Source of the DNA: a bacterium
Lineage (GTDB): Bacteria > Verrucomicrobiota > Kiritimatiellia > CAIKKV01 > CAITUY01
Assembly: GCA_037128595.1 (NCBI GenBank)
Contig: JBAXWB010000007.1
Coordinates: 96,588-160,587, forward strand
Reading direction: 5' to 3'
Length of the DNA: 64,000 nt
Below are positions 13,098 to 61,372 of this stretch, one piece after another. The position numbers and the translations under genes were made by a program. The notes beneath the pieces are model-generated. The model saw only the letters and a program-made list of their open reading frames with translations. It had not been told where the DNA came from and did no database searches. Position 1 is the first letter of the stretch; each line of letters begins with the position of its first letter.

Positions 13098-13138
13098 AAG
13101 CCCCCCGCGAACAAAGACGTCGTGCCCCACAGTGTCAT

Positions 13139-15046: not shown

Positions 15047-15106
15047 TGTTGCCCCCTTTTTACGGTTAAATTTTAGCACTTCTGCAATTCATCACATAGA
15101 GTCATT

Positions 15107-15132
15107 TTGTGACATGCTACGCCAAATTGTGA
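15107..15132 (+). promoter_or_regulatory. TTGTGA-N14-TTGTGA direct repeat (site a), 61 bp upstream of the beta-strand-repeat gene start
   Basis: tTTGTGACATGCTACGccaaATTGTGAc. Confidence 0.55.
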
Positions 15133-15147
15133 CTTGGTATATCACCT

Positions 15148-19278: not shown

Positions 19279-19296
19279 AGTAGGGGTCCCGGTATT

Positions 19297-44495: not shown

Positions 44496-46022
44496 ATGTC
44501 TGATCCCACCATTGAAGAACTCAAAGCGGCGACCGCGCTGCTCAAACAAGTCGCCGGCAACCGGGCGTTATTAGCGGAACTCTCCCTGGAAGACCGCAAG
44601 CATCTGATCTCCGCCGCGGGCGATGTCTACTGCCCGGATATGTTTGAACGCCGGCGTCTGGTCCGCGCCACTGAACGCCGCCGTAAAGCCGAATTGATCG
44701 CCCGCGATCAGGCGAAACTCGCGGACACAGGAATCCGCAAACTGCGCCAGAAGCCCGTCTTCACCACCCCCAACATCCTGCCTCCCGCCCAGTTTGAGCA
44801 GCAGGATGTCGAGGGCGACCCGGAATTCCGCGATGTGGTGGAGCCCCGCAACTGCTATACCTGCAAACAGAACTATACGTCGATCCACCATTTCTACGAT
44901 CATCTCTGCCCCGCCTGCGCCACCTTGAACTTCCATAAACGCACCGAGTCCGCCAATTTGAGCGGCCGAGTCGCCCTGCTGACCGGTGGCCGCGTGAAAA
45001 TCGGCTATCAGGCGGGCATCAAGCTACTGCGGGCCGGCGCCCACCTGATCGTCTGCACGCGCTTCCCCCGCGATTCGGCCACCCGCTATGCCGCGGAAGC
45101 GGATTTCGCGGAGTGGGGACACCGGCTGGAAATCTTCGGCCTGGATTTCCGCCACACGCCCAGTGTCGAGGCCTTCTGCCGGCATCTGCTGGCCACCCTG
45201 CCCCGGCTGGACTTCATTATCAATAACGCCTGCCAGACGGTGCGGCGTCCGCCCGACTTCTATCAGCATATGATGGCGGGCGAAACCGCCGCCATTCAGG
45301 ATATGCCGGAGGCGACCCGGCGCTTGCTGGGCGCCTATGAAGGTTTGCGCGGCTACCATCTGTTACCGGAAGGCGATGCCGTGGTTGCCCAGAAGCGGAT
45401 GTCCGAGGTCGTCGGCATGACCCATGCCGCCGAACTGTCACAGATCCCCCTGCTCCCCGATGAACTGGCGGCCCAGCAGTCCCTCTTCCCGCAAGGCCGG
45501 CTCGACCAGGATCTGCAACAGGTCGATCTGCGCACCACCAACTCCTGGCGGATGCTGATGGCCGATGTGCCGGCCGTGGAGTTACTGGAAGTTCACCTGG
45601 TGAACGCCGTGGCCCCCTTCCTGCTGAATGCGCGGCTCAAACCGCTGATGCTGCGTACACCGGAGCGCGACAAACATATTGTGAATGTCTCGGCCATGGA
45701 AGGCCAGTTCTACCGCAAGCTCAAAACCACCCGCCATCCCCACACGAACATGGCCAAGGCCGCCTTGAACATGATGACCCGCACCTCGGCCACCGACTAT
45801 TTCAACGATGGCATCCATATGAACGCCGTGGATACCGGCTGGGTGACCGACGAAGACCCCATCGAGCTGGCCGAGATGAAGACCAAGATGCACCGCTTCC
45901 ACCCGCCACTGGACATCGTGGACGGTGCCGCCCGGATTGTGGACCCCATTATCGACGGCTTCAATACCGGCACCCACGTCTGGGGCAAGTTCCTGAAGGA
46001 CTACAAGCCGACGGATTGGTGA
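44496..46022 (+). CDS. SDR family oxidoreductase with ~160-aa N-terminal extension
   Basis: [31 protein letters not shown] (TGxxxxIG Rossmann); NNAC motif; YRKLK Tyr-Lys catalytic dyad. Confidence 0.7.
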
Positions 46023-46080: not shown

Positions 46081-47181
46081 TTATTCGCTTAGGCGATAGC
46101 TTGTGCTCCGCCCGCGACTCGGATTCAGCATCAGGGTGCCACGCTCGAGAAGTTCCCTTATATCACGCAAGGCAGTGTCGGCGGAACAGTGCGCCAGCTT
46201 GGCATATTTGGATGAGGTCAGGTTCCCCTCAAACCCATCCAAAAGCCGGTTGACCACCAGGCGCTGACGGTCATTGATGGCTGACATGTTGATTTTCTCC
46301 CAGATCCGGGCTTTTCGCAAGACACCGGCCAGCGTCGTGTGCGCAAGCTCCAAGGCACGACCCAGACATTCAAGAAACCATTTCATCCACAGGGTGATCT
46401 CGATGGTGCCCTTCTGGCTGGACTCCAAAATCTGATAATAGTCTTTTCGTTCCGCTTCAATCTGGGCTGACATGCTGTAAAACCGAGTAGCCGTGCCATC
46501 AGCTCTGGCCAGGGCCATGTCCGCGATGGCACGGGCAATACGCCCGTTTCCATCCTCAAACGGATGGATCGTCACAAACCAGAAATGCGCCAAAGCGGCC
46601 TTCAATACCGGATCGACGGCAGGCGGCGCGTTGAACCATTGAAGAAACGCGTTCACCTCGGCATCCAGTCTGAGAGCGGCAGGAGCCTCGAAGTGCACCT
46701 TTTCGCGGCCGATTCCACCGGACACCACTTGCATTGGCCCCGACTCCATCGTACGCCATGCCCCCACGGTGATCTTTCTCATATTGCTATAGCCTGTAGG
46801 AAACAGCGCAGCGTGCCAGGAGAAAAGTCGTTCCTGAGTCAGGGGTTCGGCATACTTTTGCGTGGCATCAAGCATCATCTCCACCACGCCCTCAATGTGC
46901 CGGGACGACAGAGGTGTCCCGCCAGTCTCCATCCCCAGTTTACGAGCCAGGGAGGAGCGAACTTCGCCCGCATCCAGTGACTCGCCCTCTATAGCAGCAG
47001 ACTTCACAATATCAACGGTCAAGGTGGCAAGGTGCGCTTCATCACGCAAATGGAACCCCAACGCTTCCATTCGCCCCAGAAGCCGGCCTTGCCGATGCCG
47101 AATTTCCACCAGCGCAGGAGCCAATAGCGCATCATCCCACTTGAAATTCGGCCAATCTCGATCTTCGTATATGTACGGCAT
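46081..47181 (-). CDS. Fic family protein (AMPylase/adenylyltransferase fold) with C-terminal wHTH
   Basis: HPFEDGNGRIARAIADMALAR is the canonical HPFx(D/E)GNGRxxR Fic motif; start moved to MPYIYEDRDWPNFKWDD, the typical Fic N-terminus. Confidence 0.85.
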   Translation of the reverse strand: MPYIYEDRDWPNFKWDDALLAPALVEIRHRQGRLLGRMEALGFHLRDEAHLATLTVDIVKSAAIEGESLDAGEVRSSLARKLGMETGGTPLSSRHIEGVVEMMLDATQKYAEPLTQERLFSWHAALFPTGYSNMRKITVGAWRTMESGPMQVVSGGIGREKVHFEAPAALRLDAEVNAFLQWFNAPPAVDPVLKAALAHFWFVTIHPFEDGNGRIARAIADMALARADGTATRFYSMSAQIEAERKDYYQILESSQKGTIEITLWMKWFLECLGRALELAHTTLAGVLRKARIWEKINMSAINDRQRLVVNRLLDGFEGNLTSSKYAKLAHCSADTALRDIRELLERGTLMLNPSRGRSTSYRLSE

Positions 47182-47347
47182 AAACACCTCACCTGATCGA
47201 GATACTGAACTTTTAACGCGAATAGCGCAAGTATTTACCGCATATCCTGCGGTGATTAAGACGCTTATTCGCCGCAAATACCATCATCTCTCCTTCTGTT
47301 CTGGCTCCTGGATACGGTCATTTTTCGCCTCTTGATTTTATCAATAG

Positions 47348-47380
47348 CCAATGCTAAACAGCTTGAGCATGAGCAAGACC
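47348..47380. repeat. copy 1 of a ~33-bp direct repeat (CCAATGCTAAACAGCTTGAGCATGAGCAAGACC) spanning the start codon of the LacI-HTH gene
   Basis: Second copy at 48947-48979 (about 27/33 identical), immediately after the same gene's stop. Confidence 0.7.
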
Positions 47381-48943
47381 GCTACGTTAAAAGATGTGGC
47401 CATAGCCGCCGAAGTGGATCCTTCGACAGCCTCTTTTGTCATCAACGGCAAAGGAGATAAGCTCCGGATCAGTCCCTCCACCCAGGCTCGGATTATGGCT
47501 GCAGCCCGCCAGTTGGGATACCGCCCGAACGCCATTGCCAGGGATGTCGCTCTGGGGCGCGGTGTCGAGCCGATTATCACAAGTGACGCCTCGTCCACGT
47601 CGGCAATACCGAGAGAGCGGCAAATCGGCCTTGTGCTCTCGGCCACCAGTCCGGGCGAAACCCTGGCCTTGATCCCCAGGCTGGAGCCGCCACTCTCCGC
47701 CGCAGGCTACCAGTTGGTCGTGATCACCCTTCCTGTTGATGAGAGTGCAGTCCGGGAACGAGTGTTGAAACTTGGGTTTGCCGGACTCATCTGCTGTCCC
47801 ACCGTCTACGCCACCGTGTCCACGCTGGTCGCCGGGGTATGTCCCACCATCGTTTTATGGGAAGGCGCAGGGAAGGCGATCTTGATTGCGGTGAGCCCGC
47901 CACGAGCGGATGCAACCGTGGAGGGCAGTAGGCAGTCGGCAGTGAGCAATCCACAGCCTCCGGTACAACCCGCACCACCCATCCTTCAACCCAAACCGAT
48001 AGCCGTTGCGCCAGTTGCAACACCGAAGCCGGTCATCGTGGCTCCAACGCCGAGACCCGTTCCCGCGCCGACACCGGAGCCAATACCTGTGCCTGACACG
48101 GTCCCAGCGCCGGTCTTTACGCCCGAACCCGAGCTGGCTCCGGTGTCGGAGCCGAGTCCGGCCTTGGCCGATCCTGAACCGGTGTTATCGCCTTTGTCGC
48201 CGGAAGCCAGCATGTCAACACCGGCAACACCGGAATTGGATTCCAACCCGGTGCCGGAGACCGCAACACCGGAGCCCATTCCGGTGTCAGAGCCGAGTCC
48301 GGCCTTGGCCGATCCTGAACCCGTATCGTCGCCTTTGTCGCCGGAAGCCAGCGTGTCAACACCGGCAACACCGAAATTGGATCCCAGCCCGGCGACGGAG
48401 GCCGCAACACCGGTGCCGGTCATTGAGCCCAGTGAACTCACGCCGGTCACGGTGGCAGACCCTGCCGCTGACAACCCTTCGACAAGCTCAGGGCAGGCGG
48501 CGGCTACTACAGAAGAAAATTCAATTCCGGTTGTGACCGACGAGGTGCACGCTGCACCTGTAGTAACCGGTGTATCGCCGGTAGAAGCCAATCCAGAGCC
48601 ACAACCGGAACCTGCCCCGGAACCCGTGCCGACATTTACGCCAATCGTTACTTCAGCTCCGGCTCCCGAACCAGTAGCCCCACCCCCTGAACCCATCGCA
48701 GATCCACCGCCAGTGGTTTCCCCGCCGCCCGCGCCAGTGATACCTGCTGAGCCGCCACCTATCATTCCGGTCCCGGCTCCGGCAGAAGTTCTACCGCCAA
48801 CTGATTTTCCGATTCCCGAGGCACCTTCAGCCGACCCGCTGTCAGCAGCGAATGAGGCAACCATCGACACCGATTCGCCGATGTCAGAAACTGATTCGCA
48901 AGCTACGATTTCGCCCGATAAGCAGGCACCACCAATTCAATAA
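47351..48943 (+). CDS. LacI-type HTH protein with degenerate periplasmic-binding-like domain and long Pro/Ala/Thr/Glu-rich low-complexity tail
   Basis: N-terminal ATLKDVAIAAEVDPSTASFVINGKG...ISPSTQARIMAAARQLGYRPNAIARDV is the LacI/GalR HTH. The tail has PEPxP / PAP repeats including a 47-aa tandem duplication. Possible start at the second ATG (MSKTATLKDVA). Confidence 0.6.
   Translation: MLNSLSMSKTATLKDVAIAAEVDPSTASFVINGKGDKLRISPSTQARIMAAARQLGYRPNAIARDVALGRGVEPIITSDASSTSAIPRERQIGLVLSATSPGETLALIPRLEPPLSAAGYQLVVITLPVDESAVRERVLKLGFAGLICCPTVYATVSTLVAGVCPTIVLWEGAGKAILIAVSPPRADATVEGSRQSAVSNPQPPVQPAPPILQPKPIAVAPVATPKPVIVAPTPRPVPAPTPEPIPVPDTVPAPVFTPEPELAPVSEPSPALADPEPVLSPLSPEASMSTPATPELDSNPVPETATPEPIPVSEPSPALADPEPVSSPLSPEASVSTPATPKLDPSPATEAATPVPVIEPSELTPVTVADPAADNPSTSSGQAAATTEENSIPVVTDEVHAAPVVTGVSPVEANPEPQPEPAPEPVPTFTPIVTSAPAPEPVAPPPEPIADPPPVVSPPPAPVIPAEPPPIIPVPAPAEVLPPTDFPIPEAPSADPLSAANEATIDTDSPMSETDSQATISPDKQAPPIQ
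48120..48405 (+). repeat. 141-bp tandem duplication (x2) inside the Pro-rich coding region
   Basis: GAGCCGAGTCCGGCCTTGGCCGATCCTGAACC recurs at 48149 and 48290; encodes TPEP...SEPSPALADPEPV(L/S)SPLSPEAS(M/V)STPATP(E/K)LD twice. Confidence 0.75.
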
Positions 48944-48986: not shown

Positions 48987-49616
48987 TCAAATCTTCGTGG
49001 ACACAGTGGACTTTGCTGACGGGGTTGACCAAGGACGTGGCGAACGTTTCTCGGAGCGGATCCGGTAGAGGCGTTCAGTGAAACCGCCTTCGGCCTCAAA
49101 AGCAGAGGCTTGAGATGCAATTTGGCGATCAAGCAAACTGCAGGCAACCGCCAGCAAAACCAGCGCCGCATTGGCCGCAAGTTCAGGATATGGGTTTTGT
49201 CCACTTGGTCCACCCAGTCCACTCCCCCGATTATCCCGCACCCAGACAGCCACATCATCCGCGGTCACGCAACGGCGATCAATCAGGTTTTGTCGGCGAG
49301 GATCCTCGCGCTTCCAGATCGGCATGCTTCTCTGGCGAAGGAAATCTTCGTAATCGAGGCGGAGTTCTTCCAAACTGGCACGGGCCACATTCGTAAGTTT
49401 CAGTTCGGTCTTTTTGGAAGTTCCCGAAGCCTGGCTCCCTTCGGCAATATTCTGGACCCCGGACCGCGCCGCCTGGACCATCTGGTCATGGGTACGACTT
49501 CGCCGGTCAATGAATCGGTCGCAAAAACGCACGGTGATATCGAAAGCCAATTGAGCGACCTGAAAGCTTTTGAGCTTCCGGTAGCCTCCATGCACAGGTA
49601 TGAGCGGCTCGGCCAT
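48987..49616 (-). CDS. four-helix-bundle protein (TIGR02436-like, 23S rRNA IVS protein family) with C-terminal extension
   Basis: GYRKLKSFQVAQLAFDITVRFCDRF ... AARSGVQNIAEG ... NVARASLEELRLDYEDFLRQ matches the family pattern (YRxL, NIAEG, SLxEL). Confidence 0.6.
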   Translation of the reverse strand: MAEPLIPVHGGYRKLKSFQVAQLAFDITVRFCDRFIDRRSRTHDQMVQAARSGVQNIAEGSQASGTSKKTELKLTNVARASLEELRLDYEDFLRQRSMPIWKREDPRRQNLIDRRCVTADDVAVWVRDNRGSGLGGPSGQNPYPELAANAALVLLAVACSLLDRQIASQASAFEAEGGFTERLYRIRSEKRSPRPWSTPSAKSTVSTKI

Positions 49617-49798
49617 TATTCATCAACTCCTGCTTATTAAGCAGGTAATATGACAGCACCAGCCGAGTTTCGTCTATCTGCGCCAGTAACGATTTTTCTA
49701 TCAGCGAATGTTGGAGCAGAGCGGTGTTGTTGCGGTATTGCAACTTACTCAGCTTCGTACTATTGTTTCAGAACATTACAGGGAGACAAACCTTCAGC

Positions 49799-50500
49799 AT
49801 GCCAGACAAACACACAGATATTCGCTACACGCCCCTTTACCGACTGCCCGAAGTAGCAATGTACACGCATGGCAACTTGAGCACGCTTCGCACATGGGTT
49901 ATGGGGCGTTCACACGCCACCAAAGATGGCCAAAAATACCAGCCAGTAATCAAGGTCGAACAACCTAACCGCGCGGATGCCTTAAGTTTTATCAACTTGA
50001 TCGAAAGTCACGTTCTGGTGGCATTGAGGAGGACTCATCAAGTTCCCCTGCCTAAAATCAGGGATGCCGTCCTTTGGCTCCAGCAGGAAACGGGTTCAGA
50101 ACATCCTCTGGCAGAACTCCAGATCGAGACAGACGGACTTAATGTTTTCTTTCGCCATTTAAATCAAATCATTAGTGCTTCCGAGAAAGGCCAAGTGGTA
50201 ATTCGGGATGTCATGGAGCGCTACCTGCGCCGGATCGAACGTGACGCCAAAGGCATTCCTATCAGTTTTTGCCCCTTCACCCTTTCGGATCCTTTGCGTG
50301 ATTCTCAAACCGATATCATCATGGATCCTGCCGTTGCATTCGGACGCCCAGTGATCCGGGGAACACGCATTGCAACCGCCACAATTTTGGAGCGCTATAA
50401 AGCGGGGGAAGGCCTGACTGACCTCTCAAAAGACTATGACTTGGAGATGAGACTCATTGAAGAAGCACTCCGCTGCGCAATCGACCAGCAAGCCGCCTGA
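49799..50500 (+). CDS. DUF433-domain (antitoxin-like) protein with long N-terminal extension
   Basis: C-terminal IIMDPAVAFGRPVIRGTRIATATILERYKAGEGLTDLSKDYDLEMRLIEEALR is the DUF433 fold. ATG 49799 with GGGAGA RBS preferred over GTG 49724. Confidence 0.6.
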   Translation: MPDKHTDIRYTPLYRLPEVAMYTHGNLSTLRTWVMGRSHATKDGQKYQPVIKVEQPNRADALSFINLIESHVLVALRRTHQVPLPKIRDAVLWLQQETGSEHPLAELQIETDGLNVFFRHLNQIISASEKGQVVIRDVMERYLRRIERDAKGIPISFCPFTLSDPLRDSQTDIIMDPAVAFGRPVIRGTRIATATILERYKAGEGLTDLSKDYDLEMRLIEEALRCAIDQQAA

Positions 50501-50888
50501 CGCTTTCCGACTGGTTCTTGACGAAACCTTGGCCGGAAAATCCATTCTGGAAGGACTGCAGCAACAAGGTATTCCTGCAATCCCCTTAACTGAATTCGTT
50601 CCCAGGGGAGCGACAGATGAAGCGGTGCTGGAAGCATTGGCGCAAAAGGGAGACCTGTACTTTATCACCCGCGACCATCATTTCCGGTATCATCCAGGGG
50701 TCAAAGAAAGACTTCTTGCAGGTGGAGTGGGTGCATTTGTCATCACATCAGCAGGGAATAAGACGGCCGCGCAAATAGTTGAGCTTTTGTTAGCAGCCTG
50801 GCCCCACATTAATAAATTTGTGAGTACCCACCAACGGCCCTTTGCAGCCAAGGTAGCCGCATCCGGGAAAATCGAGTTACACTCGTAA
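50457..50888 (+). CDS. DUF5615-family (Mut7-C / PIN-like) putative toxin; start uncertain (TTG)
   Basis: FRLVLDETLAGKS ... GDLYFITRDHHFRY resembles the DUF5615 N-terminal LxDENL and D-rich core; partners with the DUF433 protein. Confidence 0.5.
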   Translation: MKKHSAAQSTSKPPDAFRLVLDETLAGKSILEGLQQQGIPAIPLTEFVPRGATDEAVLEALAQKGDLYFITRDHHFRYHPGVKERLLAGGVGAFVITSAGNKTAAQIVELLLAAWPHINKFVSTHQRPFAAKVAASGKIELHS

Positions 50889-50945: not shown

Positions 50946-52058
50946 CTAAATTCCGCGTTTGTCTTCAATTAACTTGAAGTAATTCATCAGCGCCTTCGGC
51001 CGGTATTTCGGATCGCCATCCCACCGCGACAAGACACTGGCATGCAAAGACTGGGTTGGATCAATTGAGGGGGCCGTTTTACGCGATTCGGCAGGGCCTG
51101 AAGGCTGGCCGATGGCACGATCTATACCGAAGGTGGGCCAATAGACGCCGGTTTTGGAGTTATGCAGTTTGGCGAGAGGATCAGGATGGATCAAATGGGT
51201 TTGAATTACACCTTCATCAAAGACCAATCCGGCTCCGCGTGCCTTCTCAATCATCCATCCCAGGGCAATATCCGAATGTCCACATTCCGAGGCCGGATAC
51301 CCGCCGCCGATATCACTATGCGCACCACAAAACCAGACTTGTTCAACTGTCTGCCCCGGTTTCGGCACATAGTCCCATATTGACGGGGCGAATGGGGCGC
51401 GATGCTCATCAATGGCTAGGGCGTGGTAAGCAGATTCAACCGTCTTACTTAATTCCGTGTCGTGGAACTGAAAATCATGCCGGGTAAGATACCGCAATCC
51501 CCGTAACGGTATACCAAGCGCACCCACCGTATCCCAAACCCCAATAAACTTAATGGGAATATTTTCGGCACCACAAATGGAAAAGTCCGTCCTGAATTTA
51601 AGCGGCTGCTCATCGTCGGGATGGACGTCCATCTTCCTGTACAAATCAATTGCGTCCCGGTAATGCTGAACAAATTCACGCTTGAGAATGCCACATTTGC
51701 GAATCATCCCGGCAATACTGCGAGCGGTAAAGGCCCCGCGACTAAACCCAAACAGAAAAATCTCATCCCCAGGCTCATAATTGGCCACCAGAAACCGATA
51801 GGCATCATGAATATTGGCCTCCAACCCTTCGCCAAAAGCCCCACCTGTCGCCCTATCGACCGAATTCCCCGTCCCAACCCCCTGATCGTAATAGATGATC
51901 TGAGGAATATCGCCATCCCGCTTGGCCACTCGATAGGCAATTTTTACGACATTAGAGGGGCAAGGAACGCCATTATCATCTTCCTGGTCGGGCTTATTCC
52001 AGGTGCCGTCACAACAAAGAATGAGTCTTTTCACTTTTACCCCATAATTCTGATTCAC
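50946..52058 (-). CDS. DUF2235 alpha/beta-hydrolase (T6SS Tle1-type phospholipase fold), last gene of the four-gene system
   Basis: LILCCDGTWN N-terminal block and GFSRGA nucleophile elbow (GxSxG) are hallmarks of DUF2235/Tle1; GTG start, 22 nt after the ATPase gene. Confidence 0.7.
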   Translation of the reverse strand: MNQNYGVKVKRLILCCDGTWNKPDQEDDNGVPCPSNVVKIAYRVAKRDGDIPQIIYYDQGVGTGNSVDRATGGAFGEGLEANIHDAYRFLVANYEPGDEIFLFGFSRGAFTARSIAGMIRKCGILKREFVQHYRDAIDLYRKMDVHPDDEQPLKFRTDFSICGAENIPIKFIGVWDTVGALGIPLRGLRYLTRHDFQFHDTELSKTVESAYHALAIDEHRAPFAPSIWDYVPKPGQTVEQVWFCGAHSDIGGGYPASECGHSDIALGWMIEKARGAGLVFDEGVIQTHLIHPDPLAKLHNSKTGVYWPTFGIDRAIGQPSGPAESRKTAPSIDPTQSLHASVLSRWDGDPKYRPKALMNYFKLIEDKRGI

Positions 52059-52080
52059 TGCCTACATGCCCTTGCACCCC

Positions 52081-53802
52081 CTAGAAACGACGGCCGAATA
52101 GTCCGCCATCTTCCTTTGCATCGGTCAGGACGACAGGTAAAACATGTTCTCGTAGGTCAAACCCATCCGTCTTCTCTTTGTAAGCATCATCTTCGTTCAT
52201 TGTGACAATATATTGGAATCTAAGCTCCCGAGCAGTTTCCGCCCCCACCTTCAACGCACTGACAACTTGTCGTCCATCCACCCCATCAAAAAGGTGGCTG
52301 TCATGCACCAAAAAACCGGGGCCAATCCCACGCTTCGCACAAAGGCGCATAAGCATCATATCAAAACAGAATATCTGCATGTTCTTTATACCCCTACTAC
52401 GCGCGCCCTGCATGGGAAATTGAAAAACGGGCCCGTTGGAGGTTTCCTCGATAGTCATACTGCCGGCTGACTCATAAAGGCGTTTTGACGTCTCTTCGAA
52501 AGCGAGAATTGCCTCTGCCAAACGACCCTTTTGTTCTGAAAAATCCCGACGCAGGCGTATTGCTAGGTGATTTCGTTCAATTTCAAGCTCGTTTTTGGTG
52601 CCTTCCAACTGCTCGGCAGACTCAAAGCGTTGGCGTAACGATGCCACCTCCGATTCAAGACGGCCTGCTTCACCTTGCAGTTTTGCAAACTGCTCCAAAG
52701 CCCCGTGACTATCCAACACGCTCATAACTTCGGCTCGACGCTGATCGAGGCGTCGCTTCTCCACGCCTCGGGAGGCCATTCGCTCTTTGGCTGCGCCTAA
52801 TTCCCCTGATAGGTAATCGCGTCGGTTACGGATTATCGACTCATGGAAACATCGTACTTCCTCGTAGCGTTTGACAGTTAGTCCCGGCAAGGCGACCCCC
52901 GCTTCAGCATAAATACTTTCAATCTCGATCTGTGATGGCGGCGCCTCTCCTTTCATAGCACTCTCAAGGTCATGGATTGCCGCAGTGTCTATGATGTTGA
53001 CGTTGGATATGGTCTTAATTTGTTTCGTAATCTGATCCGCTTCTGCTTCAAGTAGTTCATATTGTGGCAACACGCGAAAGGCAGTAATTTGAGACTGCAA
53101 ATCGATCAGTCGAGATTCAGCAACTGTCAGTTGCGTTCGAAGGTCGGCAGCCTTGCCAATGATGCTCCCGAAGGCGCCAGCTCCGGCGGCCTTCTTAAGT
53201 GCGGCAAGCGTTTTTTCTCGGTCGCGCACTTTCTGCCAGTCGCTCGCGATTTTCCAATCTAGACCAAGCAAAAACAACAGAGCCACCTGATAGTCTCCGG
53301 CCTGTTGCATGGCAGCCTGCTTCTCAGGTGTCATGAATGCCCCGCTATGTTGACGCCGGACGAAGTATGCAAAAAGTGATCTAAAGGTTGGGACGCGTCC
53401 CTCCATTTCGGATATAGCCTTCAATCCGAACATCTTTTCCCCAAGCGCCTGAACCCACTCAGAATTGGACAGGCTTGTTTTCCCATTTAGAAAAGCACCG
53501 CCCTCAACAAAAATTTTTGATTTCTCCTTTCCACAGCGCTTCACCGCTGCTCGATCTACACCAAGATCGAGATCAATGCCGAACATTTCACCGGCAACCG
53601 CTTCCCCTCGGAAAAGTGAATCTTTCCCAGCCTCAGAACCCGTGAGAAAATGAATAATCTCAATCAAGCTTGTTTTACCTGCCCGGTTCCGGGTTTGCTT
53701 TTCGGTTGCACCCGACTCCTTCTGAGCAATCAAGACATTTAGTCCATGGGTGAATTCAAGATTCTTAAAAGTTGTGAGGCTGCTAGAAATGCTATGAATC
53801 AT
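52081..53802 (-). CDS. ABC/SMC-like ATPase with central coiled-coil insertion (ABC-three-component-type ATPase candidate)
   Basis: Walker A NRAGKTSLIEIIHFLTG near the N-terminus; about 250 aa of heptad-rich coiled coil (LEAEADQITKQIK...LESEVASLRQRFESAEQLEGTKNELEIERNHL); C-terminal Walker-B/D-loop-like GFLVHDSHLFDGVD. ATGA overlap with the upstream 81-aa gene. Confidence 0.6.
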   Translation of the reverse strand: MIHSISSSLTTFKNLEFTHGLNVLIAQKESGATEKQTRNRAGKTSLIEIIHFLTGSEAGKDSLFRGEAVAGEMFGIDLDLGVDRAAVKRCGKEKSKIFVEGGAFLNGKTSLSNSEWVQALGEKMFGLKAISEMEGRVPTFRSLFAYFVRRQHSGAFMTPEKQAAMQQAGDYQVALLFLLGLDWKIASDWQKVRDREKTLAALKKAAGAGAFGSIIGKAADLRTQLTVAESRLIDLQSQITAFRVLPQYELLEAEADQITKQIKTISNVNIIDTAAIHDLESAMKGEAPPSQIEIESIYAEAGVALPGLTVKRYEEVRCFHESIIRNRRDYLSGELGAAKERMASRGVEKRRLDQRRAEVMSVLDSHGALEQFAKLQGEAGRLESEVASLRQRFESAEQLEGTKNELEIERNHLAIRLRRDFSEQKGRLAEAILAFEETSKRLYESAGSMTIEETSNGPVFQFPMQGARSRGIKNMQIFCFDMMLMRLCAKRGIGPGFLVHDSHLFDGVDGRQVVSALKVGAETARELRFQYIVTMNEDDAYKEKTDGFDLREHVLPVVLTDAKEDGGLFGRRF

Positions 53803-54044
53803 GGTGTTCTCCGGGATAAAAGCCCATTTTGAAGGTCAATTGCACCAATGAGAAAAAGAAGGTCAAGAGCAAGAACAAAGCTGTCATAGCGCAAGGGTGG
53901 CACAATATTCCGCCCGATGTCCCTTCGCGGCAATTCTTCCCATAATGCGGACATCGTTTTCGGCTGTGGCAAGTGATGCAAGATCCGAGCCCCTATCGAG
54001 AGAAGCGCGCGGTCTTGAGAAAGATGTTTCGATGGCAGGATCAT
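53799..54044 (-). CDS. small alpha-helical protein (81 aa); candidate middle component
   Basis: ATGA overlaps on both sides (coupled to the 301-aa gene and to the ATPase). No motif recognised; size, position and predicted helicity fit ABC-3C middle components. Confidence 0.45.
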   Translation of the reverse strand: MILPSKHLSQDRALLSIGARILHHLPQPKTMSALWEELPRRDIGRNIVPPLRYDSFVLALDLLFLIGAIDLQNGLLSRRTP

Positions 54045-54946
54045 AACTCAAGAGTTTTAGGTTCTTCAAAAATATCACACCTCTCAAAATAATAAGCAAT
54101 CACCGTCAAGACTGCCAGTTCATGCTCTGGCGTGCCGCGGTGGCCACCTCCAGCCCATGATTGTAGCTCAAAAAAAACCTCATTTGGGCTAAATTTAGTC
54201 CGGAGTTCTTGATATTTGGCCTTGAATGATTCAGCGATGCGCTCCCCTAACGTTTCGTCATGCCACTTGCTGAAGAAAGTTTCGACTAACAATGCCTTGG
54301 TGATACCAACCTTCAATAAATCGGTGACGCTTATAGACAATGCATTAGCTTCGATCTTCCCCATGGGCACTTCCCTCACCGCAAGTGCTGTCAGCACTGG
54401 TCGTTTTGCGATGGTTTCTAACACAACTTGTAAATCTTTAAAACCCAAATGAGTCTTGGTCTCTTCTGAAGGAACAGGTCCAAACCAAGACTGGAGGTCG
54501 TCGTGTGACAATCTACGAAATACGAGGCGAAATTCCTCTAAACCCCATGTTTCCAGCGTAATACCTGAATTGGCTACTTCAAAGTCGAGCACAAACTTTT
54601 GAACATGCGGAGGAATTCCCCCAGTTGCGTTGTGCGCGAAAACCCATTTATCAAAATGTTTACCCCAGTAGGCTTTGGCCCCCTCAAAATCCTCGGTAAT
54701 TTTCGAAATTGCCTTGGATGCCTCCATCTCGTTTGGCGCATATACTTGAAATAATCTTCTTTCTGATTTCAGAAAACCATCGTTCTTACGGTCTCCCTGA
54801 TTCCCCCATGGCCGACAAGCCATAAAATCAGCCTTGTAAGCCAAGCCCATCAATCTTTCGAAAAGTGACTGAAATTCGTTACCCTTCGCCCGGAGAAAGG
54901 CAATCTCGAAACCTTGCTCATAAAATGCTTTTTGTAGGCGGTCCAT
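54041..54946 (-). CDS. hypothetical 301-aa protein; candidate effector/C-terminal-domain component (possible degenerate Mrr-like nuclease N-domain)
   Basis: Starts 3 nt after the hsdMS stop. N-terminal FMACRPWGNQGDRKNDGFLKSERRLFQVYAP loosely resembles Mrr-cat (GDxGxDG...QxK); the C-terminal half is helical. Confidence 0.45.
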   Translation of the reverse strand: MDRLQKAFYEQGFEIAFLRAKGNEFQSLFERLMGLAYKADFMACRPWGNQGDRKNDGFLKSERRLFQVYAPNEMEASKAISKITEDFEGAKAYWGKHFDKWVFAHNATGGIPPHVQKFVLDFEVANSGITLETWGLEEFRLVFRRLSHDDLQSWFGPVPSEETKTHLGFKDLQVVLETIAKRPVLTALAVREVPMGKIEANALSISVTDLLKVGITKALLVETFFSKWHDETLGERIAESFKAKYQELRTKFSPNEVFFELQSWAGGGHRGTPEHELAVLTVIAYYFERCDIFEEPKTLEL

Positions 54947-54949
54947 GTT

Positions 54950-57481
54950 TTAACCCTCCGTGTTTGCTATTTCTTCTCCCCACACCCGCCCCAACGTCGT
55001 CTGGATCTTCTTCTCAAATCGGACGATCAGTTCGCGGTTCGCCGCTACCAGCGCTTGCTCGGCTTCGATCTCCGCAATGATCGCTTTCTGCGTGGCGAGG
55101 GGCGGGAGGGGAATTTGAACGGAAGACAGAATGCCTTGGTTTAAGTTCTTCATTGTGACGCCAATGGCTTGTTCTTCGAGATATGCCCTAACCTTTTGAG
55201 ATGCAATTTGGAAGAAAGCGAATCGAGGGAGGCACTTGCTTTTTAAACGAATGACAAAACTCCCAGTACCGCAAAGCCAGCCAGCCATGTCCGCAGAGAC
55301 CACTGCACACCTTCCCATTTCACCTCGCCTACCGATAACAATGTCATTCCCCTGGACAGTGAATTCTTTTAGGCGGTCTCTGGTGGCAGCGGACACCATC
55401 TTTACACCATCAGTGCTTATAGCTCCATCGACTATGTTTTGCGGATTGATGACAGGTATTCCATCCGCGACGTAATCACTTTGGTGTAGAGCAGTTCCGA
55501 ATGGACCGGTCATTATGGCCTCACACACCTCCCCCAACTCCACCATCGGCCACCCGGGGTCAATAGTGATGTGGGGGCAGTAGTTATCGAGGACGGCGCG
55601 GGCACCATCGATGACTTTCTGGTAACCCTCGATCTCTGTCACGATCTCCTTCTGTATCTCTAATGGCGGAAGGGGGATTTGAATCGACCTCAAGATCGGC
55701 ATATTTAAACCGCTTCGTTCATTGTCTCCCGTTAATGCCCGAATTTCTGCATACATCGAGCGAAGCACCCAAAAGACAAACTCTACGACTGCTCGGGGTG
55801 GTTGCGCCGGGGTAATAGCAACGAGAGATTGGTTACAAGTAGCACCTTCCATACGCAGCAATGCAACTGTCCCGCGCGTTTTCCCCTGCCCATTAAGCGC
55901 GATTAAAACACTGTCCTTTGGTAAGATTCGGGCATTCGAGTTCTCCACTGCCTTCCGGGTAATGCGCTTCTCGCAATCCCAAATCTCAAACCCATGAATA
56001 TCACCCGATACCAACCATGGAACGGACCCATTCTCGTAATATTCCGCGAGGGTTGAGGTTGGTGTTCCCCCAGTCATAAAAGTGCATATTTCTCCAAGTG
56101 AAACGGTTGGCCATTTTCCCTGAAGCATCCGTGTTTGCTCGCTATACCGCTCTCCACTGAGGTTGTAGTCGCCATTGGCGCCTATCTTTTCTTTTGGAAC
56201 GATGAGTCCCGTGGTGATGGCTATGCTCTCGACTCGCTGCTTGGCTCGGATTGCTTGAAGGTAGGACTCCAATTCACCCTGCACTTGCGGAAGGTCATTT
56301 TTATTGAAGGCGCGGCGCTGAGCCCCGAGGCCGAAACCGTCGTTTTCAACTTTGAAAAAGGCGATGGTCTGGCATTGCCGGGCCAGGGATTTGTCGAGAA
56401 TGAGAATACTGGTCTTCACTCCTGAGTAGGGATTGAAACAGCCCGCTGGCAGGGAGATGACGGCGACCAGGCTGGTATCCACCAGCATCTTGCGTAGTTC
56501 TTTGTAGGCGGTCTGGCTCTGGAAGATGATTCCCTCTGGCACAATGATGGCGGCGCGGCCGGTAGGCGTAAGATGCTCGGCCATGTAATCCACAAACAGG
56601 ACTTCACTGCGCTTGGCCTGGATGGAGAAGCGCTTATGGGGCTTGATCCCGCCTTTGGGTGACATGAAGGGCGGGTTGGCCAGAATGACATCGGAAAAAT
56701 CGTTCCAGCGCTCTTCGGAGGTAAGGGTGTCGTATTCGTAAATGTGGGGATCGGTAAAGCCATGAAGATAAAGGTTCACCAGGGAGAGGCGTACCATGTC
56801 GGGCGAGATGTCATAGCCCTTGAAATTCTTGGCGAGGCGCCCTTTGTCGTCAGGCGTCAATTTGCTGTGGCCCTTGGCGTCGGTGTTGTTGCGAAGAATA
56901 TGCTTATAGGCAGAGATGAGGAAACCGGCGGTACCGCAGGCGGGATCAAGGATGCTCTCGCTTTTCTTCGGCGCGAGCACCTCTACCATGAAGTCGATGA
57001 TATGGCGTGGAGTCCGGAACTGCCCAGCATCGCCCTGACTGCCCAACACGGAAAGCAGATACTCAAAGGCGTCGCCCAGCTTTTCGCTATGGTCATAGCT
57101 GAACTCGTTAACGATCTTGAGGAAAGACTTGAGCGTCTCGGGGTCACGGTACGGGAGATAGGCGTTTTTGAAGATATCGCGAAAGAGCGGCGGGATGCCG
57201 GGATTCTCCGGCATCCTGGAAATGCCTTCACCGTAGAGGCCAAGCATCTCGTGCCCACCAAGTGAGGGCGCCATGAGTTTGGCCCAGCCGTAGCGGGCGA
57301 ACTCCTTGGTGAAAAACTTGCGCTTTCCCCCAAGCTCCTCGGATTCGGCATCCATGTCATCCATGAATTTATAGATCAGCGCAATGGTGATCTGCTCAAC
57401 CTGGGATTTGGGATCAGGCACTTTGCCAACAAGAATGTCACGAGCGGAGTCGATGCGGCGTTTGGTGTCAGTATCTAGCAT
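54950..57481 (-). CDS. hsdM: type I restriction-modification methyltransferase and specificity subunits fused in one ORF (HsdM-HsdS)
   Basis: N-terminal HsdM N-domain; QFRTPRHIIDFMVEVL; DPACGTAGFLISAY (motif I); ILANPPF (motif IV); IVPKEKIGANGDYNLSGERY HsdM C-terminus. This continues without a stop into two TRDs (KWPTVSLGEICTFMTGGTPTST and GWPMVELGEVCEAIMTGPFGT) with the conserved LPPLEIQKEIV and LPPLATQKAIIAEIE HsdS coiled-coil repeats. Start at ATG 57481 (MLDTDTKRRID). Confidence 0.8.
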   Translation of the reverse strand: MLDTDTKRRIDSARDILVGKVPDPKSQVEQITIALIYKFMDDMDAESEELGGKRKFFTKEFARYGWAKLMAPSLGGHEMLGLYGEGISRMPENPGIPPLFRDIFKNAYLPYRDPETLKSFLKIVNEFSYDHSEKLGDAFEYLLSVLGSQGDAGQFRTPRHIIDFMVEVLAPKKSESILDPACGTAGFLISAYKHILRNNTDAKGHSKLTPDDKGRLAKNFKGYDISPDMVRLSLVNLYLHGFTDPHIYEYDTLTSEERWNDFSDVILANPPFMSPKGGIKPHKRFSIQAKRSEVLFVDYMAEHLTPTGRAAIIVPEGIIFQSQTAYKELRKMLVDTSLVAVISLPAGCFNPYSGVKTSILILDKSLARQCQTIAFFKVENDGFGLGAQRRAFNKNDLPQVQGELESYLQAIRAKQRVESIAITTGLIVPKEKIGANGDYNLSGERYSEQTRMLQGKWPTVSLGEICTFMTGGTPTSTLAEYYENGSVPWLVSGDIHGFEIWDCEKRITRKAVENSNARILPKDSVLIALNGQGKTRGTVALLRMEGATCNQSLVAITPAQPPRAVVEFVFWVLRSMYAEIRALTGDNERSGLNMPILRSIQIPLPPLEIQKEIVTEIEGYQKVIDGARAVLDNYCPHITIDPGWPMVELGEVCEAIMTGPFGTALHQSDYVADGIPVINPQNIVDGAISTDGVKMVSAATRDRLKEFTVQGNDIVIGRRGEMGRCAVVSADMAGWLCGTGSFVIRLKSKCLPRFAFFQIASQKVRAYLEEQAIGVTMKNLNQGILSSVQIPLPPLATQKAIIAEIEAEQALVAANRELIVRFEKKIQTTLGRVWGEEIANTEG

Positions 57482-57531: not shown

Positions 57532-57894
57532 TTATTGATTGTTTTGTTTGGCGGTACGGCCAGATGCGACAAATATAGCGGTGAGTTCCCCGGCTTCTTG
57601 ATGTAGTTGCGCAACCTTCCCTGCGGGAAGAAGCCCACCTTCCATAATTAATTCCATCCAAAGGGAACTTTCATCGGCTTCCTCGGCAACGACGCCAATC
57701 TTGGCGACAAACTCTGCTTTAGAACGGCTTCGGCATGAGGCACGATAATTGGCACCTACAGAGGTACCACTGCGCACAAGTTGATTTCCGATGGCTCGAC
57801 CTGCAGTGGTTTTCGGCAACGCATCGACGAGTTTCAGCACTCTCAATGCAAAAACCTTCGTCCGTTGCTTCAGTTCTGCCTCGTTCATGAGCAT
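57532..57894 (-). CDS. four-helix-bundle protein (TIGR02436, 23S rRNA intervening-sequence protein family)
   Basis: 120 aa; LKQRTKVFALRVLKLVDALPKTTAGRAIGNQLVRSGTSVGANYRASCRSRSKAEFVAKIGVVAEEADESSLWMELI is the textbook family pattern. Inserted between hsdR and hsdM. Confidence 0.8.
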   Translation of the reverse strand: MLMNEAELKQRTKVFALRVLKLVDALPKTTAGRAIGNQLVRSGTSVGANYRASCRSRSKAEFVAKIGVVAEEADESSLWMELIMEGGLLPAGKVAQLHQEAGELTAIFVASGRTAKQNNQ

Positions 57895-57937: not shown

Positions 57938-60472
57938 TTAAGCCGCAAATTGGTTCAGTGACACGTAGTCTTTAATATATTCCGGGATCAGTGTCCGGTA
58001 TTTCGCGGGAACGGCCTTGAAGTCTTTTGTTGAGAAAGCAGGATTCGTGGCAAGATCGGCGTATTCTTTTTCGTCAATGATGTGGCGGACACGGCCGTCG
58101 GTGATGTAGGCCTTGAAGTAAGTTTTAATTGCCGGGATGGCCTCGGCTTCTTCGGGCTTGGTGTCGGCCACAAATTTGGCGAATTCCTCCTCCAGCAACT
58201 CGTCCTTGGATTTGAAACTGGGAATGAGACCGAAGATTTTCTCCAGGATCTCCCGCAAGGTGAGGCGCCGGTCCACTGCGGCCGCTTTGCGCAGTTTGTC
58301 CAGGGTGTAATATTCCCGGGGTTTGTCAAAAACCTCGCGGTTGACATAGTCAATGACTCGGTCCCACTGACCCGCCTCAATGGCGGCGGCAATGGTCTTG
58401 TTATCGCGTACGGCATCCTCGAATTTCTCAAAGAACATCCGGTCGATTTTCATCCCCTCATAGCCAATGGTCGCCTCCTTGACCGAGGCGATGATGTCCG
58501 CACCTTTATGATCATAAATACCACCAGGTGGGGGCGGTGGGTTGGGCCCCTCCCCACCTTTACCTTTCGGCTTGGGTAACTTCAGCACCTCGTCATACTT
58601 GAACTCCTGTTCGAAGTATTCGCAGTTGGCAAAAAAATCGAAAAGTTTATAGGCGCTCTTCTGGGGCTTTGTCACCCCCTCCTTGATGGCCGGATCAAAG
58701 ACCTGTTCCAGAAAGTTGTGCTTACGGGTGCCGCGTCCCTTGATCTGAATGAAATCAGTAGGCGAGAAAATGGGACGGAACAGTCCGAGGTTCAGGATAT
58801 CCGGACAATCATAACCGGTGGTCATCATGCCCACAGTCACACAGACCCGGGCCTTACTGGTCTTGTAGGCCGGAATGAAGTTGGCGGAACCCAGCAATTT
58901 GTTGTTGGTGAAGTTGATGGTGTGCTGCTGGGCTCCATCCACCTGAGAGGTCACCTGCACGGCAAAATCCGACTGGTATTTGCCGGGGAACATGCGGTCG
59001 GCCATCTGGTTCAGGATTTGCGTCAATTTGGCCGCATGGTTCTGGCTGACCGCAAAGATAATCGACTTGCCAATCTCACCGCTGACAGGATCACGAAGAG
59101 CATTTTCGATGAACGTCTTGCAAAACAACTGATTGGTGGAATCGGCAAAAAACCGCTTTTCAAACTCGCGCTGTTTATAGGCCTCCTCCTGGTCTTCCCC
59201 GGCATCATCCTTAAAGGTAACGACAAATCCCTCTTCGGAAAGAAGTTCGGTGGTGATTTCGGTGCGGGCATCCACCACCGTGGGATTAATCAAATACCCC
59301 TCCTTGACGCCATCAAGCAGGGAGTAGCGGTAAGTGGGCTGGCTGTTTTCGCACCCGAAAGTGCGGTACGTATCCAACAACAGTCGGCGCTCGGCTTCAC
59401 GCGGGTCACGCGTGGAGGCCTTGGCATGATCAAACCGCTTGAGGTAGTCACGGGGGGTGGCCGTCAACCCCAGTTTATACCCGATAAAATAATCAAACAC
59501 CGCGCGGGCATTGCCGCCAATGGAGCGGTGAGCTTCGTCAGAGATCACCAGGTCGAAATCCGTCGGCGAGAAAAGCTTCTGATATTTGTTATTGAACAAC
59601 AGGGACTGCACAGTGGTCACTACAATTTCCGCATGACGCCAGTCGTCCCGGTTTTCCTTGTAAATGACGGTCTTGAAGTCGGCCGAAAGCTGGGCATCGA
59701 ATGCTTTCTGGGCCTGGGTTTCCAACTCAAGACGGTCCACCAGAAACAGCACACGCCGGGCGTTGCCGGACCGCAAGAATAACTTGATCACCGCAGCGGC
59801 CGTCAAGGTCTTGCCGGTCCCCGTGGCCATCTCGAAAAGAAACCGGTCCTTCCCTTCTTTTACGGCCCGCTGTAAGGCATGGATGGCGTTCAACTGGTAA
59901 GGACGCAGAAAGCGGAGTTTATTGACCTGGATATAGCCGGGCCGCTCGGCTTCATTTTTCCAGGCCGCCTCGGATTGGTAGTTGGGGCACTGGGTCAGGA
60001 CGATATAGTCCGCACCGACCTGATCCTCGCCCAGTTGTTCCGGATTGGGCTTAACCTGCTGGTAGCCGGCAACGGAATCCGGCGTAGGGAAAGATGTGAT
60101 GAGGCAGGGATTTCCGCGTTCGAGATCCCAGAAATAATGCAGATTGCCATTGGAGAGGATGACAAAGCGGCAGTTTTGCGACTTCGCATACTTACGCGCC
60201 TGTTCTTTGCCGACCAGCGGGTCCTTGTTTTCGGCCTTGGCCTCCAGCACGAGGAAAGGGAAGCCTTTGGCATTGAGCAGGAGAAAGTCGATGAACCCTT
60301 TCCCGGCCTTCTCGAAGTTATTACCCAACGCATCAAGGTCATGCGCCTTAAGCACCACGCTGGGTTCAAGCTGAATGTTGGCGGGGCCGGCGTCGTCTGC
60401 AAAGAAACGCCAGCCGGCGGCTTCGAGCAGTTTATTGATCTTGATACGGGCGGTTGCTTCTTTATCAGCCAT
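57938..60472 (-). CDS. hsdR: type I restriction endonuclease subunit R (HsdR)
   Basis: 844 aa; N-terminal nuclease region; DEAD-box helicase motifs (EMATGTGKT Walker A, DEAH-like VISDEAHRS, TATP); C-terminal HsdR domain. Confidence 0.9.
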   Translation of the reverse strand: MADKEATARIKINKLLEAAGWRFFADDAGPANIQLEPSVVLKAHDLDALGNNFEKAGKGFIDFLLLNAKGFPFLVLEAKAENKDPLVGKEQARKYAKSQNCRFVILSNGNLHYFWDLERGNPCLITSFPTPDSVAGYQQVKPNPEQLGEDQVGADYIVLTQCPNYQSEAAWKNEAERPGYIQVNKLRFLRPYQLNAIHALQRAVKEGKDRFLFEMATGTGKTLTAAAVIKLFLRSGNARRVLFLVDRLELETQAQKAFDAQLSADFKTVIYKENRDDWRHAEIVVTTVQSLLFNNKYQKLFSPTDFDLVISDEAHRSIGGNARAVFDYFIGYKLGLTATPRDYLKRFDHAKASTRDPREAERRLLLDTYRTFGCENSQPTYRYSLLDGVKEGYLINPTVVDARTEITTELLSEEGFVVTFKDDAGEDQEEAYKQREFEKRFFADSTNQLFCKTFIENALRDPVSGEIGKSIIFAVSQNHAAKLTQILNQMADRMFPGKYQSDFAVQVTSQVDGAQQHTINFTNNKLLGSANFIPAYKTSKARVCVTVGMMTTGYDCPDILNLGLFRPIFSPTDFIQIKGRGTRKHNFLEQVFDPAIKEGVTKPQKSAYKLFDFFANCEYFEQEFKYDEVLKLPKPKGKGGEGPNPPPPPGGIYDHKGADIIASVKEATIGYEGMKIDRMFFEKFEDAVRDNKTIAAAIEAGQWDRVIDYVNREVFDKPREYYTLDKLRKAAAVDRRLTLREILEKIFGLIPSFKSKDELLEEEFAKFVADTKPEEAEAIPAIKTYFKAYITDGRVRHIIDEKEYADLATNPAFSTKDFKAVPAKYRTLIPEYIKDYVSLNQFAA

Positions 60473-60704: not shown

Positions 60705-60795
60705 AAAAAAAAAGGATTCAGAACCCAGAATCCAGGAAGTGATCTCACTCCCCATTCTGACTCCTGAATCCTGACTTCTGGATTCTGTCTTTTTT
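60705..60795. terminator. bidirectional Rho-independent terminator (A9 - nested GGATTCAG / CTGAATCC and CAGAATCCAG / CTGGATTCTG hairpins - T6) downstream of the cyclophilin gene
   Basis: Read directly; the minus-strand transcript of the PPIase gene meets a hairpin followed by a U9 run. Confidence 0.55.
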
Positions 60796-61372
60796 ATTTC
60801 CGCTTCACGGACTTGATCATGACCGCAGTGGCGGGGACATCGCCCATGCCATTCTTGTTGGTCGTCTTGACGGCGGCGATCTTATCCACCACGTCCATAC
60901 CGGCCGTCACCTTGGCGAACACCGCATATCCGAAATCACGGCTGCCGTTATTGAGGAAGTCGTTATTGGCCACATTGATGAAGAACTGCGAGGTCGCGCT
61001 GTCCACCACCGCCGTGCGGGCCATGGCCAGGGTGCCGCGATCATTCTTGAGCCCGTTCTTAGCCTCATTCTTGATCGGCGCCTTGGTGCTCTTCTGGCTC
61101 ATATTGGCTTCGAAACCGCCACCCTGGATCATGAAATTGGGGATCACGCGGTGAAAGACCGTGTTGTCATAAAAGGCCGCATCCACATAGGCCAGGAAAT
61201 TACTGACCGACACCGGGGCCTTGTCCGCAAACAGTTCGATCTCGATATCGCCCTCGGACGTCGCCATCACCACCACTGTATTCGCTGTCACATTCGTCGT
61301 CATATTTGTCTCTCCTGCACTCACGGACCCCGCGAGCAGCATTGTTGTTAACGCCATCATTGATAGTTTCAT
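60794..61372 (-). CDS. peptidyl-prolyl cis-trans isomerase, cyclophilin type (secreted)
   Basis: Signal peptide; [15 protein letters not shown] ... cyclophilin core. Confidence 0.9.

Follow-up and report, generated by a model that had tools for sequence, protein, structure and literature searches.

A three-gene ABC-3C, type II Lamassu-like cassette behind a type I restriction-modification operon in a Kiritimatiellia genome, and a DUF2235 hydrolase gene that is probably its independent neighbor

Genes that lie close together on one strand of a defense island can represent either a single system or separate modules brought together by turnover. This question is raised by four minus-strand genes, here numbered 1 to 4 in the direction of transcription (50946-54946), that follow the type I restriction-modification (R-M) genes hsdR and hsdMS in a Kiritimatiellia bacterium (assembly GCA_037128595.1). 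We examined them within a 64,000-nucleotide (nt) stretch of DNA (contig JBAXWB010000007.1, positions 96,588 to 160,587), which we refer to as the window and to which coordinates refer unless another contig is named. The original prediction held that all four genes form one ABC-three-component (ABC-3C) anti-phage system with a Tle1-type lipase of the DUF2235 family, encoded by gene 4, as its effector. Our data point instead, with a probability that we put at roughly 0.8, to a mosaic island of two parts: one conserved functional unit, made up of an hsdR/four-helix-bundle/hsdMS module and a three-gene ABC-3C cassette (genes 1 to 3), and a separate, independent gene 4.

The four open reading frames (ORFs) were found exactly at the coordinates given earlier, and all of them are real genes. 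Gene 1 (54041-54946, 301 amino acids (aa)) starts 3 nt after the hsdMS stop codon (TAA AAC ATG), and ATGA overlaps join it to gene 2 (53799-54044, 81 aa) and gene 2 to gene 3 (52081-53802, 573 aa), as had been described. Homologs of genes 1, 3, and 4 number in the thousands and gene 2 stands in synteny at 79 of 80 related loci, so that chance ORFs can be dismissed. The lower local GC content that had been noted was also borne out, genes 1-4 lying at 0.45-0.51 and the window as a whole at 0.553.

To identify the cassette we applied the ABC-3C criteria given in the Lamassu structure preprints; LmuACB, DdmABC, and ABC-3C are one and the same (10.1101/2025.03.14.643221; 10.1101/2025.06.23.660979). 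Each of the first three genes is matched above cut-off by a Pfam family: gene 1 by CTD10 (PF20275; aa 171-294, approximately 1e-18 to 1e-19, well above the curated cut-off), gene 2 by MC6 (57.1 bits against a cut-off of 27.2; 1.8e-15), and gene 3 by DUF2326 (aa 439-573, 4.2e-41). In addition, the PADLOC model PDC-M68B covers gene 3 end to end (1.3e-147), and PDC-M68A matches the C-terminal domain of gene 1 (1.3e-21), beginning only at aa 165 and leaving the N-terminal nuclease domain uncovered. No PADLOC model matched gene 2 or gene 4, and NCBIfam gave nothing useful for genes 1-4. Taking these matches together with the structural neighbors and the Walker B motif of gene 3, we identify genes 1 to 3, from their sequences and predicted folds, as an ABC-3C, type II Lamassu-like cassette, composed of an LmuA-like effector (gene 1), an LmuC-like middle component (gene 2), and an LmuB-like DUF2326/YydD-type ABC ATPase with a coiled-coil insert (gene 3). 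The architecture proposed at the outset is thus upheld for these three genes. The annotations in public databases are in the same vein, as the proteins of this very window are labeled 'ABC-three component system protein' by NCBI, and JGI names gene 3 homologs 'YydD (DUF2326 family)'.

The description of gene 3 as an SMC/Rad50-like coiled-coil ABC ATPase was confirmed by its motifs and its predicted structure. It has a Walker A motif, AGKTS (aa 41-45), and a Walker B motif, FLVHDS (aa 497-502), the latter fitting the pattern hhhhD[Q/S/T/E] reported for short Lamassu (10.1101/2025.04.02.646746). In the predicted model (mean predicted local distance difference test score, pLDDT, 71), an ABC head is interrupted by approximately 260 aa of long helices, at about aa 183-445. 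A Foldseek search with this model ranked the YydD-YydB integrative model first (6.7e-16), followed by four Lamassu LmuB chains (9hqu_A, 9uxh_F, 9ux7_A, and 9hqx_B; 6e-9 to 2e-7) and, in third rank, by Rad50 (1.6e-6), SMC, cohesin, and JetC. The conserved cysteines of gene 3 are confined to the C-terminal head, where C479 is nearly invariant and C488 is invariant.

The N-terminal domain of gene 1 (aa 1-160) has the restriction-endonuclease, or PD-(D/E)xK, fold of the FokI/Mrr-like kind. It had been described as a possible degenerate Mrr-like domain; the fold was recognized correctly, but the domain is conserved rather than decaying, with D52, K54, N55, D56, Q67, Y69, K82, D86, H105, and N106 invariant across 41 sequences. 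The domain departs from the canonical D...(D/E)xK arrangement, in that D56 opens strand 2 and strand 3 carries Q67-V-Y69, likewise invariant in the 41 sequences. The invariant K54 and K82 could replace the missing catalytic residues. Because of the Q-x-Y motif in strand 3, we regard the domain as a putative nuclease. When the predicted model of gene 1 was searched against the PDB with Foldseek, only weak restriction-endonuclease-fold matches were returned and no LmuA chain, and comparison of its sequence with PDB sequences returned only noise.

The CTD10 model, which matches gene 1 over its full length at 54065-54436, does the same in the coiled-coil middle of the ATPase (gene 3 aa 275-400, 52603-52980; approximately 1e-19), and this double match was seen across all ATPase homologs in the database. 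Homology between the CTD10 domain of gene 1 and the ATPase middle was sought by BLASTP, by hhalign on database alignments, and by hhalign and hmmsearch on 78-sequence alignments, and none was found. The second match is probably a quirk of the Pfam model, which would have a heterogeneous seed.

We then asked which genes stay together elsewhere. In a scan of one genome per species, relatives of the ATPase (65-78% identity) turned up at 80 loci, from phyla that include Pseudomonadota, Verrucomicrobiota, Acidobacteriota, Chlorobiota, Nitrospirota, Desulfobacterota, Bacteroidota, and Planctomycetota. Gene 1, with both of its domains, and gene 2 were syntenic with the ATPase in 77 of the 78 loci that had enough upstream sequence. 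The exception, in a Solidesulfovibrio metagenome-assembled genome (locus L080, 5337-10004 of its contig), has a 1300-aa SIR2_2 protein, a separate 144-aa ORF with CTD10 only, MC6, and the ATPase; this may be either a variant with a split, unfused effector or a truncated cassette adjoining another defense gene. The complete trio was also present on two IMG/VR contigs classed as viral (L107 and L108), and the ATPase matches phrog_5467 (6.6e-41); the cassette is therefore sometimes borne by phages or prophages.

The association with type I R-M genes is recurrent as well. In the window, the composite module begins with hsdR (57938-60472, minus strand, 844 aa; Pfam ResIII 5e-38 and HSDR_N_2, PADLOC REase_I 1.2e-58), followed on the same strand by a four-helix-bundle protein of the 23S rRNA IVP family (57532-57894; NCBIfam TIGR02436 3.1e-21, PF05635) and by hsdMS, a fused methyltransferase and specificity subunit (54950-57481, 843 aa; Pfam N6_Mtase 1.3e-49 and two Methylase_S stretches), the start of which was taken from the gene call and its translation as the ATG giving MLDTDTKRR. 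In 10 loci, the distance from the end of a same-strand hsdMS homolog to gene 1 is at most 150 nt, and eight of the 10 also have a relative of hsdR upstream (61-86% aa identity). This recurrence indicates that hsdR-hsdMS-cassette is a recurring, horizontally mobile composite. Such a composite is consistent with the idea of 'embedded defense genes', in which ABC-3C components were among the multi-gene candidates (10.1101/2024.01.29.577857).

Gene 4 behaves differently. A DUF2235 gene was found at none of the 80 cassette loci (tblastn, E<=1e-3, up to 10 kb on each side); for 72 of these loci, the sequence continues for 1.2 kb or more beyond the ATPase. It was also missing from both viral cassette loci. 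The co-conservation assumed for four genes therefore holds for genes 1-3 and fails for gene 4. The boundary between the two can be placed closely: in most of the 80 loci, homology to the cassette at the DNA level breaks off at 52082-52094, and in none does it pass below 52082, the stop codon of gene 3 being at 52081-52083. Homology to further DUF2235 loci sets in at 52033-52041. Since one homology ends and the other starts on either side of the spacer between genes 3 and 4 (52035-52080, a feature without strand), we place a breakpoint within it.

The neighborhoods of gene 4 relatives lead to the same view. A Logan contig (SRR21524749; L100, 1-2824) carries the 3′ end of an hsdMS, then after 3 nt a DUF3644/PDC-S19 gene, and after a further 16 nt a 92%-identical DUF2235 gene (P0121). 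The hsdMS on this contig has a near-identical framework, that is, the conserved specificity-subunit frame of the window, with a different target-recognition domain (TRD2). The window and L100 thus have like flanks, with the cargo swapped at one 3-nt junction after hsdMS. On the contig of a 77%-identical relative (P0125), a PDC-S19 gene lies upstream and the window's PIN_10/DUF433/23S_rRNA_IVP block lies downstream; the PIN protein is 82% identical between the window and L102. In the window, this block comprises a plus-strand pair convergent with gene 4 and spanning 49724-50888, identified by Pfam as DUF433/HTH_66 (49724-50500) and PIN_10 (50457-50888), and a second 23S_rRNA_IVP-like four-helix-bundle gene (48987-49616, minus strand; PF05635 1.1e-6, below the curated cut-off, and synteny with the P0125 contig). 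Relatives at 84-86% identity (L101, 1012-3688, and the P0122 contig) lie ahead of a pair of HipA_2 and DUF3037 genes (PDC-M66), with an overlap of 4 nt. Those at 52-72% identity stand alone beside trp genes, ArgRS, ThrRS, amidohydrolases, transporters, and signaling proteins. The DUF2235-relative contexts examined contained no ABC-3C gene and no T6SS (type VI secretion system) gene, and no T6SS families were found among the genes of the window from approximately 9 to 64 kb, in agreement with the earlier statement that gene 4 lies outside any T6SS context. On these comparisons, a role of the DUF2235 hydrolase as component or effector of the cassette is not supported; it appears to be a juxtaposed neighbor, and is best placed with the downstream PIN/DUF433 block, which travels with DUF2235. 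In L101, a Sel1-repeat protein is encoded upstream.

As for the hydrolase itself, gene 4 (50946-52058, minus strand, 370 aa from the first GTG) matches Pfam PF09994 at 5.8e-89 (298.7 bits), and the LILCCDGTWN and GFSRGA blocks that had led to its assignment to DUF2235 are both present. It is probably an active hydrolase, because the Ser106-Asp176-His247 triad is invariant in the alignment. All 24 aligned relatives start with MK(R/K)LI..CCDG, and these N-termini, together with the point at which homology to DUF2235 loci begins, indicate that translation probably begins at the second GTG in frame (52034); this would give a protein of 362 aa and a spacer of 46 nt. The 22-nt gap reported earlier is correct for the first in-frame GTG. 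The N-terminus, judged by eye, is unlike a signal peptide, and the most fitting description of the protein is a DUF2235 hydrolase that is short, cytoplasmic, and stand-alone. Gene 4 had no PHROG match, just as it had none in PADLOC; a scan of viral contigs returned zero relatives, and a metagenome scan for DUF2235 returned 10 distant loci only. In the literature on DUF2235 and defense we found only T6SS and eukaryotic papers.

Several observations weigh against the mosaic reading or against the identity that we give to the cassette. Genes 3 and 4 share a strand and are 22-46 nt apart, and neither a promoter-like nor a terminator-like site was predicted in the spacer. For this last reason, transcription of the cassette probably continues into gene 4 in this genome, which is the sole argument for a functional link, and a lineage-specific functional recruitment of gene 4 may have taken place. 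The DUF2235 clade at 77% identity or more always adjoins defense candidates. On the side of the cassette, the PADLOC LmuB models gave weak partial matches to gene 3 (4.5e-9 and 1.8e-4), its coiled coil has no conserved CxxC zinc hook, and the predicted active site of gene 1 is non-canonical. Many LmuB proteins have such a hook, but its absence is not disqualifying, since some short-Lamassu clades without one have been reported (10.1101/2025.04.02.646746). Finally, we found no functional literature for PDC-M68, or for DUF2326/YydD in defense, and the MC6/CTD10/DUF2326 branch is, as far as could be found, a candidate defense system with no experimentally tested member.

The adjacency of the DUF2235 clade to defense candidates could mean that the genes of the clade at 77% identity or more are themselves defense-island genes that had gone unrecognized, either stand-alone abortive-infection lipases or esterases or portable accessory effectors. 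In the latter case they would be co-transcribed with the neighboring sensor module, whether PDC-M68, PDC-S19, or PDC-M66. All five contexts at this level of identity directly adjoin PADLOC candidates, with spacers of -4 to 64 nt, and in the window gene 4 lies between a defense cassette and the PIN/DUF433 pair. However, these contexts are not independent: the hsdMS flank is common to the window and L100, and the PIN/DUF433 flank to the window and P0125, so that they probably represent one chromosomal locus in related organisms. Moreover, the relatives at 52-72% identity are found in housekeeping neighborhoods, and gene 4 lacks both a match in the defense and phage protein family collections and a relative on viral contigs. 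We therefore consider a defense role of this clade unlikely.

Considerably less probable still is the four-gene model, in which the separate DUF2235 lipase-fold enzyme would be an effector, or a second effector, that is activated by the ATPase, destroys membrane lipids, and aborts infection. The strand, the short spacer, the missing terminator and promoter after gene 3, and the intact Ser-Asp-His triad would all suit such a role; lipase and hydrolase effectors exist in Lamassu (10.1101/2025.04.02.646746), and the CTD10-only ORF behind a separate SIR2 protein in L080 makes unfused effectors conceivable. On the other hand, the co-occurrence of 0/80 and the breakpoint at the gene 3 stop separate gene 4 from the trio, and the conserved effector domain is already supplied by gene 1. 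Gene 4 also has no docking domain of the CTD type, its C-terminal region being common to relatives in housekeeping contexts, and in L100 and L102 it is another cargo gene that precedes the same DUF2235 gene. The proposal that a Tle1-type lipase is the effector of this system is accordingly not supported. That gene 3 is a housekeeping SMC/RecN/RecF-type DNA-repair protein in a cluster unrelated to defense is effectively refuted: its fold is like those of Rad50, SMC, and RecN, but its best structural matches are YydD and Lamassu LmuB and not housekeeping SMCs, it stands in a strict three-gene cassette with the ABC-3C-specific MC6 and CTD10, and its distribution is patchy across phyla at 65-82% identity, with low GC content, variable defense-gene neighbors, and occurrence on viral contigs.

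Returning to the mosaic island, we infer a possible mode of action for the cassette from the solved LmuACB complexes (10.1101/2025.03.14.643221; 10.1101/2025.04.02.646746; 10.1101/2025.06.23.660979). A dimer of the gene 3 ATPase, with the MC6 protein encoded by gene 2, would hold the gene 1 protein inactive via CTD10. When this complex meets foreign DNA structures, such as double-stranded DNA ends or intermediates of phage replication, the gene 1 protein would be released. Once freed, it would oligomerize through its C-terminal domain (CTD), and the N-terminal domains brought together in this way would cut DNA, so that the infection is aborted. The recurrent coupling of the cassette to type I R-M genes suggests, as a speculation, that double-stranded DNA ends made by the adjacent restriction enzyme may feed the sensor, in a two-layer arrangement. 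Gene 4 would have been placed beside the cassette merely by cargo turnover in the island.

The value of these results is mainly corrective. A four-gene system with a Tle1 effector would, if true, be a new ABC-3C architecture, whereas the data show a standard trio and a passenger gene, and the cassette is already catalogued computationally, under MC6, CTD10, and DUF2326 in Pfam and PDC-M68 in PADLOC. Nonetheless, with thousands of homologs at 65-82% identity in many phyla, the MC6/CTD10/DUF2326 (YydD-type) branch is a widespread Lamassu-like branch. Because it recurs behind hsdR-hsdMS operons of a single kind, at their 3′ ends, it offers a clean setting in which restriction-made ends might feed a Lamassu-type sensor, and the putative nuclease domain of gene 1 is unusual for the invariant Q-x-Y that replaces (D/E)xK. 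The different cargo at the same 3-nt hsdMS junction in a related genome illustrates neatly how cargo is exchanged in a defense island.

The slot downstream of the ATPase is variable in the related loci, where it may hold an MmeI-type IIG R-M enzyme, DUF2130 and SIR2, PDC-S21/DUF4917 (unrelated to PDC-S19), a deaminase-HATPase protein, or recurrent pairs. One such pair, of approximately 420 and 350 aa and on the same strand, comes immediately after the ATPase in at least seven loci (L045, 11791-14108, L048, L052, L054, L060, L068, and L077; probably also L046). The two proteins of L045 had no Pfam or PADLOC match, and genes of this type may represent an uncatalogued defense pair. A second recurrent downstream partner, in several other loci, is a protein of approximately 260 aa; in L050, where it likewise had no Pfam or PADLOC match, a PDC-S21/DUF4917 gene comes next.

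The island contains two genes of the four-helix-bundle/23S rRNA IVP family, one within the hsdR-hsdMS interval and the other beyond the PIN/DUF433 pair. At the far edge of its low-GC region are genes for a DUF4172-Fic protein and a 530-aa protein in which only an N-terminal LacI-type helix-turn-helix was recognized (46081-47277 and 47351-48943). The island is apparently bracketed by core genes, encoding a peptidyl-prolyl isomerase (60794-61372) and a short-chain dehydrogenase (44496-46022). Neither a tRNA nor an integrase gene was found at its ends, the tRNAs of the window being only at 982 and 27072. Elsewhere in the window, four consecutive large minus-strand ORFs (9876-21432; 1084, 646, 1376, and 711 aa) had zero precomputed Pfam matches, and are flanked by genes for an AraC-type regulator, an MFS transporter, and an S15 peptidase.

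How, then, does the locus compare with known systems? With the Tle1 effectors of T6SS, gene 4 shares the PF09994 catalytic domain, the GxSxG nucleophile motif, and the HSD(I/V)GGGY block. It differs in that, at 362-370 aa, it is much shorter than the solved Tle1-domain protein 9j3f (779 aa), to chain A of which it gave a weak match at aa 159-263 (E 2e-4), and no T6SS, VgrG, Hcp, PAAR, adaptor, or Tli immunity gene is found near it in the part of the window given above or near the relatives examined. Lipases are also known as effectors within Lamassu. Lamassu/ABC-3C systems with alpha/beta-hydrolase and lipase effectors have been described, with the enzyme fused in LmuA (10.1101/2025.03.14.643221; 10.1101/2025.04.02.646746), and Ec-Lipase Lamassu has been validated with a mutant of the catalytic His (10.1101/2025.04.02.646746), so that the novelty claimed for a lipase effector does not stand. 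In Ec-Lipase, LmuA itself carries the lipase as its N-terminal domain, fused to the CTD, whereas here the DUF2235 protein is separate and not co-conserved, and LmuA already has a nuclease fold.

Among catalogued systems, the cassette corresponds to PDC-M68 of PADLOC, in which gene 3 is PDC-M68B and the C-terminal domain of gene 1 is PDC-M68A; the N-terminal domain of gene 1, gene 2, and gene 4 are outside its models. Structurally, the nearest relative of gene 3 is the Bacillus subtilis YydB-YydD complex (PDB 9a6c, an integrative model), which belongs likewise to the DUF2326 family, at an identity of only 16%. The partner effector of that complex differs from ours, YydB being, as we presume, a metallophosphoesterase-type protein.

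The closest functional counterpart is type II Lamassu, from which the cassette is set apart in some respects. Its ATPase is of the DUF2326/YydD branch and lacks the zinc hook, and PADLOC files it separately. The solved Lamassu complexes have a Cap4 nuclease, CTD7 or CTD12, and MC3, whereas gene 1 has a FokI/Mrr-like domain with an invariant Q-x-Y and no match among solved LmuA structures. The two are nevertheless alike in the order of effector, small middle component, and SMC/Rad50-like ABC ATPase and in their defense-island setting; in an N-terminal enzymatic domain followed by a CTD of the CTD1-12 series, here CTD10, and a middle component of the MC1-8 series, here MC6; and in a coiled-coil ATPase that matches the solved LmuB chains and has the D-S Walker B of short Lamassu.

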